The notes below the pieces were generated by a model that was given only the letters and a program-made list of their open reading frames with translations, was not told the origin of the DNA and did no database searches. A stretch of DNA of 64,000 nucleotides from Escherichia phage EcWhh-1, in sequence record MH791409.1; one strand, written 5' to 3'. Each line of letters opens with the position of its first letter. Position 1 is the stretch's first letter. This document shows, one piece after another, positions 59,458-63,998 of the stretch. A program made the position numbers and the translations under genes.

Positions 59458-61017
59458 ATGAAAAAGAATGCATTAGTTCAAAAATGGTCCGCTCTGCTGG
59501 AAAACGAAGCTCTTCCTGAAATCGTTGGCGCTTCTAAACAAGCTATCATCGCTAAAATTTTCGAAAACCAGGAACAAGACATCCTGACTGCTCCGGAATA
59601 CCGTGACGAAAAAATCTCTGAAGCATTTGGTTCTTTCCTGACCGAAGCTGAAATCGGTGGTGACCACGGTTATGATGCTACCAATATCGCAGCTGGCCAG
59701 ACCTCTGGTGCTGTAACTCAGATTGGGCCGGCAGTAATGGGTATGGTTCGTCGTGCTATTCCTCATCTGATTGCTTTTGATATTTGTGGTGTTCAGCCTC
59801 TGAATAACCCTACCGGTCAGGTATTTGCACTGCGTGCAGTATATGGTAAAGACCCTATCGCTGCAGGCGCTAAAGAAGCTTTCCATCCGATGTATGCTCC
59901 GAACGCTATGTTCTCTGGTCAGGGTGCTGCTGAAACTTTCGAAGCACTGGCTGCAAGCAAAGTTCTGGAAGTTGGTAAAATTTATTCTCACTTCTTCGAA
60001 GCTACCGGTTCTGCACACTTCCAGGCTGTTGAAGCTGTAACCGTTGATGCAGGCGCTACTGATGCCGCTAAACTGGATGCTGCTGTTACCGCTCTGGTTG
60101 AAGCTGGTCAGCTGGCTGAAATCGCTGAAGGTATGGCTACTTCTATCGCAGAACTTCAGGAAGGTTTCAACGGTTCTACCGATAACCCGTGGAACGAAAT
60201 GGGCTTCCGCATCGACAAACAAGTTATCGAAGCTAAATCTCGTCAGCTGAAAGCAAGCTACTCTATCGAACTGGCACAGGATCTTCGTGCAGTACACGGT
60301 ATGGATGCAGATGCTGAACTGTCCGGTATCCTTGCTACCGAAATTATGCTCGAAATCAACCGTGAAGTTATCGATTGGATTAACTACTCTGCACAGGTTG
60401 GTAAATCTGGTATGACCAACACCGTTGGCGCTAAAGCTGGTGTGTTTGACTTCCAGGACCCGATTGATATCCGTGGTGCTCGTTGGGCCGGTGAGAGCTT
60501 TAAAGCCCTTCTGTTCCAGATTGATAAAGAAGCAGCCGAAATCGCTCGTCAGACCGGTCGTGGTGCTGGTAACTTCATCATCGCTTCCCGTAACGTAGTT
60601 AACGTACTGGCTGCAGTTGATACTTCTGTAAGTTATGCAGCTCAAGGTCTGGGTCAGGGTTTCAACGTTGACACAACCAAAGCAGTATTTGCCGGTGTTC
60701 TTGGTGGTAAATATCGTGTTTACATCGACCAGTATGCTCGTTCCGATTACTTCACCATCGGTTATAAAGGTTCCAACGAAATGGACGCAGGTATCTACTA
60801 TGCTCCGTACGTTGCACTGACTCCGCTGCGTGGTTCCGATCCGAAGAACTTCCAACCGGTAATGGGCTTCAAAACTCGTTACGGTATCGGTATTAACCCG
60901 TTCGCTGACCCAGCTGCTCAGGCGCCTACCAAACGTATTCAGAATGGTATGCCTGACATCGTTAACAGCCTCGGTCTGAATGGTTACTTCCGTCGCGTAT
61001 ATGTTAAAGGTATCTAA
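59458..61017 (+). CDS. 23: major capsid protein gp23
   Basis: Very high similarity to recalled T4 gp23 along the whole length. Confidence 0.97.
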   Translation: MKKNALVQKWSALLENEALPEIVGASKQAIIAKIFENQEQDILTAPEYRDEKISEAFGSFLTEAEIGGDHGYDATNIAAGQTSGAVTQIGPAVMGMVRRAIPHLIAFDICGVQPLNNPTGQVFALRAVYGKDPIAAGAKEAFHPMYAPNAMFSGQGAAETFEALAASKVLEVGKIYSHFFEATGSAHFQAVEAVTVDAGATDAAKLDAAVTALVEAGQLAEIAEGMATSIAELQEGFNGSTDNPWNEMGFRIDKQVIEAKSRQLKASYSIELAQDLRAVHGMDADAELSGILATEIMLEINREVIDWINYSAQVGKSGMTNTVGAKAGVFDFQDPIDIRGARWAGESFKALLFQIDKEAAEIARQTGRGAGNFIIASRNVVNVLAAVDTSVSYAAQGLGQGFNVDTTKAVFAGVLGGKYRVYIDQYARSDYFTIGYKGSNEMDAGIYYAPYVALTPLRGSDPKNFQPVMGFKTRYGIGINPFADPAAQAPTKRIQNGMPDIVNSLGLNGYFRRVYVKGI

Positions 61018-61021
61018 TATA

Positions 61022-61048
61022 AACCTTATTATGGGAGACTTCGGTCTC
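61022..61048. terminator. bidirectional hairpin (GGGAGACttcgGTCTCCC) between convergent genes
   Basis: Perfect stem between gp23 stop and stop of minus-strand 61066..61332. Confidence 0.6.
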
Positions 61049-61065
61049 CCATTCTTGTTTCTATA

Positions 61066-61332
61066 CTATGCAATCTTAACACGACGGTTGATGATATCAC
61101 GGAAGTCAATACGATTTTCTTGGATTTTCAGCCAGTTACCAGATTTGTCTTTGGTATGGGTAGAGTATTCACCGTTCCACCAGAAGTCGGTAGCATAAGC
61201 CATGGCTTCGTATTTCTTAACTAGTGCATTCACTGCATTACCGTTAGGATTGGAACCATATTTTTCTACCAGGGCTTTGATGTCTTTATCAAGAGCGGAA
61301 AGAGTAGTACGAATAAAGTTTAACTTGTTCAT
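61066..61332 (-). CDS. hypothetical protein, 88 aa, antisense to the late cluster
   Basis: ATG at 61332 with GAGGAGA SD; early promoter element just upstream; occupies the 23-24 interval. Confidence 0.55.
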   Translation of the reverse strand: MNKLNFIRTTLSALDKDIKALVEKYGSNPNGNAVNALVKKYEAMAYATDFWWNGEYSTHTKDKSGNWLKIQENRIDFRDIINRRVKIA

Positions 61333-61350
61333 TTTTAATCTCCTCATGTT

Positions 61351-61392
61351 TTGATAGGTCTATAGTAACATGTGATAACCTTGCTGTAAACA
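61351..61392 (-). promoter_or_regulatory. early promoter element
   Basis: GATAGGTCTATAGTAACAT plus TGTAAACA. Confidence 0.55.
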
Positions 61393-61397
61393 ACTTT

Positions 61398-61405
61398 TAT
61401 AAATA
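61398..61405 (+). promoter_or_regulatory. late promoter TATAAATA box (gene 24)
   Basis: Exact TATAAATA ~28 nt upstream of gene 24. Confidence 0.6.
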
Positions 61406-61433
61406 AACATATACCCTCAATAAGGAAAGCGCA

Positions 61434-62714
61434 ATGGCAAAGATTAACGAATTACTGCGCGAGTCAACAACTACTTCTAGCAACTCATTGGGTCGCCCTA
61501 ATCTTGTTGCTTTGACCCGTGCTACAACCAAATTGATTTACCGTGATATTATTGCTGAACAACGTACTAGCCAGCCTATTGCTGCATTGTATGGTGTCAA
61601 ATATCTTACTCCTGATAATGAATTTAGCTTCCAAACTGGTGCCGTTTATGGTGGTGAAGTTGGTTCTAAAGACCGTGAAACTATCCCGGAACTCACAGAT
61701 AAGGCCCAGGCTATTGCCAAGGGCGAATATTTCAAGTATCAGAACATAGTTTATAAGGCTCTTCAAGCAAGCCCACTCGCATCCACTAGCGCTACAGAAT
61801 TGGCTGATGCCCTTCAAGAAGGTTTGGTGTCATTAACATGTCGTCTGGTTCCTGATGCGGCTCACACAGAGAAATTCGAAGCAGGTGATGTTGAAATTAG
61901 TAATGCAGTATTCCAGGTTAATAAATGGAACGCACCTGTTAAGTCTCGTAAACTTAAAACCGCTTTGACTGTAGAACTAGCCCAAGACATGGAATCCAAT
62001 GGCTTCGACGCCCCTGCGTTCTTAGAAGACCTTTTAGCCACTGTAATGGCTGATGAAATCAATAAAGACGTACTACAATCCTTGATTACCGTATCTAAAC
62101 GTTACAAAGTAACTGGTGTATCTGATAATGGTATTATTGATTTGTCCTATAATTCTGCCCCAGAAAGTGCACGTAAATTATATGAAATGGTTTGTGAGAT
62201 GAATTCTGAAATTCAGAAAACCACTTCTTATTCAGGTACGTTTGTTGTCGCATCTAGTCGTGCTGCTGCTATGCTCGCTGGTTCAGGTTGGTTGAAACAT
62301 AAACCAGAAGATGAAGCTTGGCTCCCAGAAACTGCTTACGGTTATTTGATTAATGGATTGCCTGTATTCTGTGATGTTAATAGTCCTTTAGATTATGTTA
62401 TCGTAGGCGTTAAAGAAGATTACGGCGGTAATGAAGTAGTTGGTTCTATTTTCTATGCCCCGTATACCGAAGGTCTGGATTTAGACGACCCAGAACATGT
62501 TGGTGCGTATAAAGTTATTGTAGACCCTGATAGTTTACAACCGGCTATTTCTCTGATGGTTCGTTATGCACTTTCAGCAAACCCATATACCGTTGCTAAA
62601 GATGATAAAGAAGCTCGTGTTATAGACGCAACTAATATGGATTTAATGGCAGGTCAGAGTAACATGTCTTATCTGCTTGGTGTTAAACTTCCTCCTATTA
62701 TTTACGAGGCATAA
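61434..62714 (+). CDS. 24: head vertex protein gp24
   Basis: High similarity to recalled T4 gp24 (MAKINELLRESTTT...). Confidence 0.95.
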   Translation: MAKINELLRESTTTSSNSLGRPNLVALTRATTKLIYRDIIAEQRTSQPIAALYGVKYLTPDNEFSFQTGAVYGGEVGSKDRETIPELTDKAQAIAKGEYFKYQNIVYKALQASPLASTSATELADALQEGLVSLTCRLVPDAAHTEKFEAGDVEISNAVFQVNKWNAPVKSRKLKTALTVELAQDMESNGFDAPAFLEDLLATVMADEINKDVLQSLITVSKRYKVTGVSDNGIIDLSYNSAPESARKLYEMVCEMNSEIQKTTSYSGTFVVASSRAAAMLAGSGWLKHKPEDEAWLPETAYGYLINGLPVFCDVNSPLDYVIVGVKEDYGGNEVVGSIFYAPYTEGLDLDDPEHVGAYKVIVDPDSLQPAISLMVRYALSANPYTVAKDDKEARVIDATNMDLMAGQSNMSYLLGVKLPPIIYEA

Positions 62715-63998
62715 ATGAAAAAGATTAATGCATTAATACAAGAATCAACTTTGACGGCGGCCAACCAGGTCGCCCGTCCTAATCTTCTTTCATATACCCA
62801 GGCAACTAATAAAAGAATTTTTAAAGCCCTTGTTGCTGAACAAAAAACTACTCAACCTGTTGCAGCATTATATGGTGTCCGTGTTTTAAACCCAGACGAT
62901 AAAATGACTTATCTCGGCGGAGCCACTTTTGCAGGTGAAATTGGTATGTTCGAACGTAAAAACATTCCTGAGTTCACCGATAAAGACGAAGCATATGCTG
63001 TTGGCGATATGTTCCAATTCGAAAGTGTGGTTTTCAAGGTATTAGAAGCTTCTCCGTTTGCAGGAACAACTGAAACCGATTTGAGTGAAGTTATTTCAGA
63101 AGCTATTGCCGCGGGCCATATTCGTATGATGTCTGATGCAGCCTTTACCAATAAATTTGAAAAAGGCCATCCTGAGATTGCTGAAGCAGGGTTCCGTATT
63201 GATAAGTGGCAGACTGAAGTTAAATCGCGTAAACTTAAAACTTCTTTGACTGTGGAACTGGCCCAGGATTTAGAATCCAACGGGTTTAATGCACCGGACT
63301 TTATAGACAATATTTTGGCTATTCAAATGGCTGAAGAAATTAATAAAGACGTATTACAGTCCTTAATTACAGTAAGTTCTCGTTTTAAAGTCCAAGGAGT
63401 TTCTGAGAAAGGTGTCTTGAACTTAACAGACCCACAATACGATAACGCCCAAGACCGAGCACGTACCTTGTATTACTATATGTGTGAAATGAATTCTGCT
63501 GTTCAACGCCAGACTTCGTTTGCAGGTACTTATGCAGTAGCTTCTTCTCGCTGCGCTGCTATTTTAGCTGCATCCGGTTGGGTTGAGAAAAAAGAAGACC
63601 AAGACGAATTAGCTTATGGCGTATTAAAGAACGGTCTACCACTTTATGCCGATATGAATAGCCCGTGTGATTATGTTATTGTCGGTGTAAATGCTCAGAT
63701 GGGTGAAGGGCAGACGGTCGCATCTTTGTATTATGCGCCTTATACGGAAGGGCTCGAAGAGGTTGATGATGAAGGTGATACTTCAGTAGGTGAATTCAAG
63801 GTTATTGTAGACCCGGATTCATTGCAACCTACCATATCTTTATTGGCTCGGTATGCATTGACTGCGAATCCTTATACCGTCGCTAAAGACGACAAAGAAG
63901 CTCGTATTATTGATGGTGCGGATATGGACAAAATGGCTAATCAAAGTCAATTGAGTTCTTATCTTGGTGTAAAACTTCCTCCATTGGATAAAAACTAA
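62715..63998 (+). CDS. second gp24-like vertex protein paralog
   Basis: 427 aa, roughly half identical to the adjacent gp24 over full length; start abuts gp24 stop. Confidence 0.85.
   Translation: MKKINALIQESTLTAANQVARPNLLSYTQATNKRIFKALVAEQKTTQPVAALYGVRVLNPDDKMTYLGGATFAGEIGMFERKNIPEFTDKDEAYAVGDMFQFESVVFKVLEASPFAGTTETDLSEVISEAIAAGHIRMMSDAAFTNKFEKGHPEIAEAGFRIDKWQTEVKSRKLKTSLTVELAQDLESNGFNAPDFIDNILAIQMAEEINKDVLQSLITVSSRFKVQGVSEKGVLNLTDPQYDNAQDRARTLYYYMCEMNSAVQRQTSFAGTYAVASSRCAAILAASGWVEKKEDQDELAYGVLKNGLPLYADMNSPCDYVIVGVNAQMGEGQTVASLYYAPYTEGLEEVDDEGDTSVGEFKVIVDPDSLQPTISLLARYALTANPYTVAKDDKEARIIDGADMDKMANQSQLSSYLGVKLPPLDKN

Follow-up and report, generated by a model that had tools for sequence, protein, structure and literature searches.

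A probable early accessory cassette encoding an 88-residue basic protein in the gap between capsid genes 23 and 24 of Escherichia phage EcWhh-1

Introduction

Why would a T4-type phage keep a small gene with an early-type promoter on the opposite strand of its late capsid genes? This question is raised by the interval between gene 23, which encodes the major capsid protein, and gene 24, which encodes the capsid vertex protein, in Escherichia phage EcWhh-1 (MH791409.1). We analyzed one continuous stretch of 64,000 nt from this genome, hereafter the window. Over region 60900-61500, the window shows 100% identity to phage NC-G and 99.8% nucleotide identity to Escherichia phage JS98 (Straboviridae, Tevenvirinae, Dhakavirus), and it comes from a JS98-like T4-type coliphage. 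A first-pass annotation of the window, made from the nucleotide sequence and a list of its ORFs, had singled out this interval. Here, we examine the gene, its promoter and its terminator, compare the interval across related phages, and weigh what its product is likely to do.

Results

A single minus-strand gene fills the gap between genes 23 and 24

The features of the locus are listed in Table 1. The intergenic gap is 416 nt long and is filled by a small ORF on the minus strand, which reads from an ATG at 61332 to a stop codon ending at 61066. An alternative in-frame ATG at 61347 would yield a protein of 93 aa. We rejected this longer form and prefer the 88-aa reading because the upstream ATG overlaps the Shine-Dalgarno sequence and lies only ~8 nt from the predicted 5' end of the transcript, and because JS98 is annotated with the 88-aa form. 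The ribosome binding site had been described as strong in the first-pass annotation, which is in keeping with the GAGGAG found at 61345-61340, 7 nt before the ATG. The same annotation had placed the ORF antisense among late capsid genes, and this is indeed where it lies, since it is the sole plausible minus-strand gene within 31462-63998. All the remaining plausible genes in this part of the window are on the plus strand, which makes the small ORF a lone early-type unit in ~32 kb of late genes.

Table 1. Features of the 23-24 interval and related elements in the window
Feature	Position	Strand	Basis or remark
Gene 23, major capsid protein	59458..61017	+	Left flank of the slot
9-bp GC-rich hairpin, UUCG loop	61031..61052		Terminator scan (plus strand only); folding of both strands
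CDS of 88-aa basic protein	61066..61332	-	ORF list and sequence; stop codon included
Shine-Dalgarno GAGGAG	61340..61345	-	Read from sequence; 7 nt 5' of ATG 61332
Conserved stretch past the -10 box into the leader (AGACCTATCAAAACAT)	61346..61361	-	Shared with other early promoter copies
Early sigma-70-type promoter (predicted)	61362..61391	-	Promoter scan and membership of repeated element
T4-type late promoter box TATAAATA for gene 24a	61398..61405	+	Pattern search
Gene 24a, capsid vertex protein, first of two tandem paralogues	61434..62714	+	Right flank of the slot
Other early promoter copies (position of the G of the -35 region)	27808, 27241, 22852, 22522, 17647, 14495, 11998, 8079, 3057, 469	-	Repeated element

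On the right-hand side of the gap, the two gene 24 paralogues (61434-62714 and 62715-63998) are arranged in tandem without any spacer and are 56% identical to each other. A tandem gene 24 pair is also present in Gaprivervirus VR26 and in two metagenomic phages (L008 and L010), and the gene is found as a single copy in Mosigvirus, T4, and the other phages examined.

The RefSeq record of JS98 carries one minus-strand CDS between gene 23 and the first gene 24 copy, orf173 (YP_001595302), which is 267 nt long and named "hypothetical protein". This is the same CDS, and the small ORF is therefore a gene that has already been annotated. It also belongs to protein family PHROG 6003 (E = 4.2e-50, residues 1-88 aligned with profile positions 1-88 of 90), and its counterpart in RB69, in the same slot and on the same strand, is RB69ORF189c/188c. 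JS98 orf173, the RB69 ORFs, and PHROG 6003 all represent the gene under study and are all hypothetical proteins. There is no difference in kind between them, except that the RB69 copy is frameshifted, and none of these records gives a function. Two other family members bear names that are evidently wrong: a protein from the metagenomic phage L008 (P0017; L008 3501-3773) named "NADPH-dependent curcumin reductase CurA" by JGI, and a protein from phage EAWsc9 (H65; PQ341120) labeled "glycosyl hydrolase family 25" in GenBank.

The small ORF is preceded by a full copy of the predicted early promoter of the phage

As assessed by a promoter scan, region 60800-61700 contains one sigma-70-type site (TTTACA, a 17-nt spacer, and TACTAT, with an upstream TG; 61390-61362, minus strand). 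Together with the preceding G, the -35 box occupies 61391-61385, and the spacer is followed by the -10 box at 61367-61362, with the TG of a TGt motif at 61370-61369. There is also an AT-rich sequence, ATTTATAAAAGTT, upstream. These are the features of a T4-type early promoter (GTTTAC(A), a 17-nt spacer, an extended -10 TGn, TAnnAT, and an AT-rich upstream region), and transcription of the small ORF would start near 61355.

The promoter, including the downstream TAGACCTATCAAAACA, matches an element that occurs 10 or more times in the window and is on the minus strand in every case. When the whole window was searched with a regular expression, GTTTACA-N-TG(A/T)TACTATAGACCTATCAA(A/C), the copy at 61391 was found to match the consensus through the -10 box and for 16 nt beyond it. 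The early promoter element, which is ~45 nt long, is highly conserved (GTTTACA...TGATACTATAGACCTATCAA). Every other copy lies within the first 28 kb, which is where the minus-strand early genes are, and the small-ORF copy is the only consensus copy beyond ~28 kb. What had been reported as a conserved early promoter element thus proved to match in full the early consensus of this phage. The -35 box, the 17-nt spacer, and the -10 box are all kept in VR26 and JS09, despite protein identities of 59 and 34%, respectively. In one respect the small-ORF copy differs from most of the others. A stem-loop spanning the spacer, the -10 box, and the start site (-11.5 to -16.5 kcal/mol) is predicted in 8 of the 11 other promoter copies, and no stable stem-loop is formed by the small-ORF promoter (-3.4 kcal/mol).

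The late promoter box of gene 24a is placed back to back with this early promoter, with the -35 region 6 nt away on one side and the gene 24a ATG 28 nt away on the other. Boxes of the TATAAATA type occur 16 times in the window, against 7 expected, and the one at this locus is invariant in an alignment of relatives. No such box was found on the minus strand at the small-ORF locus. The literature searched, which covered RB69ORF188c, Mosigvirus and Dhakavirus transcriptomes, and gene-essentiality screens, contained nothing on the small ORF, be it transcript, protein, or phenotype data.

The terminator hairpin of gene 23 also marks the 3' end of the cassette

The two convergent genes are separated by a hairpin, ATGGGAGAC-TTCG-GTCTCCCAT, with a distance of 13 nt to either stop codon. 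As assessed by RNA folding, it is stable on both strands, with energies of -16.4 kcal/mol (z -4.4) and -19.5 kcal/mol (z -5.6). On the plus strand it is followed by a canonical T-rich tail (UCUUGUUUCU) and passes the terminator scan, whereas the tail on the minus strand (AUAAUAAGGUUUAUAUU / AUAAUAAGGUUU) has no U-tract and fails it, which makes termination on that side uncertain. Of the earlier description of this element as a bidirectional hairpin shared with gene 23, the sharing and the stability on both strands were upheld, but a bidirectional terminator, which would have an upstream A-tract and a downstream U-tract on both strands, was not established, since the T-rich tail is present on the plus strand only. 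An identical hairpin is found in JS09 and in the empty 23-24 gap of phage PEi26. The latter indicates that the hairpin is gene 23's own intrinsic terminator and is older than the cassette, whose 3' end it also marks. In VR26, TTTTTATTT, with a proper T-run, comes after the equivalent hairpin on the strand of the ORF.

This arrangement raises the question whether the locus might act mainly at the level of RNA or transcription, by antisense read-through into gene 23 or by occlusion of the gene 24 late promoter, with the ORF being secondary. The convergence with gene 23, the weak terminator tail on the minus strand, and the short distance between the early -35 region and the late TATAAATA box are all compatible with such a role. 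Nevertheless, we consider it extremely unlikely, because the protein is under strong purifying selection and has a confidently predicted fold (see below), the strong Shine-Dalgarno is kept, the VR26 hairpin has its T-run on the ORF strand, and a search of 60800-61600 against Rfam returned nothing significant.

The 23-24 slot has different contents in different phages

The slot is empty, with a gap of ~83 nt, in Kanagawavirus PEi26, Tequatrovirus PhiZZ30, Moonvirus Moon, Klebsiella phage Roth79, and Acinetobacter phage Acj61. In these empty gaps, the late promoter directly abuts the gene 23 hairpin. The cassette of EcWhh-1 sits precisely at this junction, with the gene 23 terminator on one side and the gene 24 late promoter on the other. 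In T4, the slot was reported by the first-pass annotation to hold segD, and we found this gene there, on the minus strand. Phage Matisse has a plus-strand GIY-YIG gene, whereas JSE has two small plus-strand ORFs. In IME08, the ORF is followed after 3 nt by segD, which is inserted between the ORF stop codon and the hairpin and encodes a protein 56% identical to T4 SegD. The ORF and segD are both present in the slot of LF82-2 as well. Comparison of the 23-24 interval across relatives thus revealed slots that are empty or that hold segD, a GIY-YIG gene, small ORFs, the ORF, or the ORF with segD. The proposal that the junction is a hotspot for insertions is borne out by the differing contents in T4, IME08, Matisse, and JSE when set against the empty relatives.

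The layout upstream of segD in T4 is like that of the window (TATTTATAAAGTTA-TTTACA, 17 nt, and TATTAT). In the T4 record, a sigma-70-like match upstream of segD (L006 234-323; T4 NC_000866 ~107233-107322, minus strand) stands back to back with the late box of gene 24. According to a 2010 review of T4 mobile elements, no segD-specific promoter is identifiable (PMC2988022).

The small ORF is an old and conserved occupant of the slot

As assessed by tblastn, the small ORF is present in 237 phage records, with identities of 90-100% in Dhakavirus, ~60-67% in Gaprivervirus, and 35-39% in Mosigvirus. It lies on the opposite strand between genes 23 and 24 in JS98, IME08, VR26, JS09, O157 typing phage 6, RB69, and the metagenomic phages L008 and L010, and its position is conserved down to 30% identity, with its length kept. 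Pairwise dN/dS values are between 0.07 and 0.38 (seven pairs, i.e. all those for which it was computable). In the widest alignment, M1, K3, F6, G31, N32, N35, and Q71 are invariant, and L14, L21, N30, A45, and S57 are nearly so. The small ORF is not a recent insertion in EcWhh-1; it has long occupied the slot and has been inherited vertically in three genera.

An AT-rich window such as this one contains many spurious ORFs of 60-110 aa, so that a chance ORF in an intergenic spacer had to be considered. Its chances are practically nil, because this reading is refuted by the retention of position and length down to 30% identity, by dN/dS values well below 1, by a fold predicted with a pLDDT of 94, and by the existence of a PHROG family. 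That the 88-aa ORF is real, as first annotated, is thus supported by same-position conservation in three genera, purifying selection, and a confident structural model.

The small ORF diverges far more than its neighbors. In VR26, identity to the window is 59% for the small ORF, 97% for gp23, and 90% for gp24a; in the metagenomic phage L008, the corresponding values are 29, 92, and 94%. Compared with gene 23, the ORF has diverged very strongly at synonymous sites, which may be explained in part by a codon-bias constraint on gene 23, rather than by allele exchange. Not all copies are intact. In RB69 (L030; AY303349, 402-642), one 1-nt insertion and one 1-nt deletion relative to JS09 produce ORF189c and ORF188c, which means either that the gene is a pseudogene or that the 2003 record contains sequencing errors. 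In phage mogra, the copy is split into two ORFs. Considering that it is frameshifted in one phage, split in another, and absent from T4 and from the five phages with an empty gap, the small ORF looks dispensable.

The product is a small basic protein with no characterized relative

The protein has a mass of ~10 kDa and a pI of 9.6, is hydrophilic, and is predicted to be soluble. Its basic character is consistent across the family: 12 of 13 members, with identities as low as 30%, have a pI of 9.2-9.9 and a net charge of +3 to +8. An AlphaFold2 model built from a 16-sequence alignment has a mean pLDDT of 94.1 and a pTM of 0.80. The predicted elements (H3-25, H31-48, E52-61, E67-71, and H77-87) form a helix, a second helix, a β-hairpin, and a final helix. 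The same fold is found in a BFVD entry with 40% identity (TM 0.90).

Searches with this model and with the sequence turned up no functionally characterized relative. Foldseek retrieved own-family entries in BFVD, and its best match in the PDB had an E value of 2.1. Sequence searches of the PDB, with a single sequence or with a profile, gave nothing below E = 0.2. For the small ORF and 16 family members, Pfam matches were all subthreshold (DUF5380 with E = 0.075-0.1 in 5 of the 16, DUF4859, and others), and NCBIfam and PADLOC yielded nothing credible for the small ORF. A SegD-like protein would show a GIY-YIG catalytic domain or similarity to SegD; the small protein has no Pfam GIY-YIG match and no similarity to IME08 SegD by BLASTP (E = 0.34). 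The statement that the product is not nuclease-like is therefore in agreement with both homology and structure searches, which produced no Pfam match above threshold and no relative in SegD or the PDB.

When 1.84 billion representatives were searched exhaustively with a profile, 10 matches were retrieved, of which eight are members of the small-ORF family or fragments thereof. The other two, P0022 (1347 aa; E = 1e-15) and P0024 (3916 aa; E = 2e-7), are giant surface proteins with Ig repeats. We set them aside as probable artefacts of repeat summing, because they score only through weak repeat matches (9-11) confined to the β-hairpin region. A word-indexed search with a broader profile retrieved only stand-alone proteins of ~87 aa and no fusions. 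No homologue was found in representative bacterial genomes, and a search of IMG/VR returned only loci on contigs as long as those of the T4-type isolates.

Four distant homologues, with 30-40% identity, are encoded by unrelated phages, whose contigs measure 32-141 kb. By megablast, the phages of L007 and L012 gave short matches at most. Three of the homologues (L007, L032, and L033) are located within long arrays of co-oriented small ORFs, which is typical of an early region, and the fourth (L012) is surrounded by small ORFs and follows closely on a tail gene. This genomic context and the consistently basic nature of the protein are weak leads, and on them we prefer an early effector as the product. 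A role in head morphogenesis, e.g. regulating or chaperoning gp23 or gp24, could be suspected from the unvarying place of the gene between genes 23 and 24 in three genera. This is very unlikely, however, because the promoter is early rather than late, the ORF is absent from most T4-type phages that have nearly identical capsid genes, the RB69 copy is frameshifted, and the homologues in unrelated phages are in small-ORF arrays, with only L012 near a tail gene.

The ORF and segD have moved between genera as one unit

Phage LF82-2 (L031; PV648360) documents an exchange at this slot. Its flanking genes are of the Mosigvirus type, gene 24 being 94.7% and gene 23 being 91% identical to JS09, but its cargo is of the Dhakavirus type, with nucleotide identities to IME08 of 94.6% for the ORF and 89.5% for segD. 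The cassette extends over 1294-2230, with sharp breakpoints just 5' of the ATG (1293/1294) and at the hairpin (~2227-2231). The ORF and segD thus traveled as a single unit, with the conserved promoter/leader and the terminator at its borders. Several genomes of the LF82 series have the same Dhakavirus-type ORF and segD cassette in a Mosigvirus-type backbone.

Two routes may be envisaged. Recombination at conserved regulatory cassettes would fit, in the manner of the promoter-stem-loop (PeSL) elements of RB49 and phi1, at which such recombination has been described (Arbiol et al. 2010, PMC2839356). Co-conversion during SegD homing would also fit; the target of SegD is listed as unknown (PMC2988022).

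These observations bear on the possibility that the small ORF is tied to SegD, as a helper, regulator, or immunity factor, or that it is mainly hitch-hiking cargo of a segD mobile element. In favor of such a link, T4 segD occupies the same slot with the same back-to-back promoter layout, the two genes form a co-oriented unit 3 nt apart in IME08 and LF82-2, and this unit crossed from a Dhaka-type phage into a Mosigvirus backbone. However, JS98, VR26, JS09, O157 typing phage 6, and the metagenomic phages L008 and L010 carry the ORF without an adjoining segD, T4 has segD without the ORF, the protein has no sequence similarity to SegD, and the distant homologues have no nuclease neighbor with a Pfam match. 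A functional tie to SegD is therefore improbable, though it is the alternative to which we give the most weight.

Discussion

Overall, the observation reported for this locus was confirmed and its interpretation is supported. The most probable explanation is that the small ORF belongs to a self-contained accessory cassette, composed of an early promoter, a ribosome binding site, and the 88-aa ORF, that resides in a permissive gap between genes 23 and 24, encodes an early effector, and is exchanged by recombination. The architecture of the cassette and its predicted early timing are well supported by the sequence. The biochemical role that we propose is inference, since no family, fold, or fusion partner offers a lead.

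In brief, the host sigma-70 RNA polymerase would transcribe the small ORF leftwards in the opening minutes of infection, ahead of the late capsid genes around it and without depending on them, and the transcript would end, or be stabilized, at the gene 23 hairpin. The protein may then act stoichiometrically by binding a host target. The conserved positive charge suggests that this target would most plausibly be a nucleic acid or an acidic protein that handles nucleic acids, and the role may be in host take-over or counter-defence. The gene would probably not be needed for growth on laboratory hosts. Recombination at the conserved regulatory sequences on either side probably passes the cassette from phage to phage, and in some lineages it travels with the homing endonuclease gene segD.

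How does this cassette compare with known systems? As in the PeSL elements of RB49 and phi1, a strong conserved early promoter lies directly 5' of a small ORF without a characterized relative, and recombination at regulatory sequence swaps the cargo, the LF82-2 breakpoint being in the 5' leader between the promoter and the ATG. Unlike PeSL, the small-ORF promoter has no stable stem-loop, and the gene is inside a conserved virion module rather than in a hyperplastic region. It is most of the other early promoters in the window that resemble PeSL, owing to the stable stem-loop across their spacer and -10 box. The locus is also like that of T4 segD, a free-standing GIY-YIG homing endonuclease gene (Edgell et al. 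2010, PMC2988022), in its slot and strand, in having late and sigma-70-like boxes back to back, and in the gene 23 hairpin downstream. The cargo is different, being an 88-aa non-nuclease that lacks a GIY-YIG motif and is not similar to SegD.

The cassette further shares with morons its own promoter, and it has empty sites in five T4-type phages and disrupted copies in RB69 and mogra. Morons, a concept reportedly due to Hendrix and colleagues, each consist of one gene, with a promoter and a terminator of its own, that has been inserted between neighboring genes of a conserved operon. Classical morons belong to temperate phages, with expression from the prophage. Like them, the small ORF is an autonomous transcription unit between adjacent late genes, is absent from close relatives, and has a timing unlike that of its neighbors. 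Unlike them, it is in a virulent phage, has a predicted early expression, and would borrow the terminator of its neighbor. The moron concept is also discussed in the PeSL study (PMC2839356).

Taken together, these findings describe an ordinary accessory early cassette. The gene is catalogued, the variability of the slot has already been recognized, and the locus is no new kind of system, so that the current view of phage biology is unchanged by it. Its interest is modest and lies in what is apparently a new small fold and in the tie to segD-linked cassette exchange. The small ORF adds a well-supported member to the pool of T4-type early ORFs without an assigned function, which is the usual source of host take-over and anti-defence factors. 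It is a clean and small candidate that looks dispensable, has a confident model, and shows a clear pattern of presence, absence, and alleles across Dhaka-, Gapriver-, and Mosigviruses. Because of its small size and this allele pattern, and because the ORF and segD were transferred between genera in LF82-2, the locus lends itself well to testing how accessory cargo is moved within an otherwise rigid block of capsid genes by homing endonucleases and by conserved regulatory ends.
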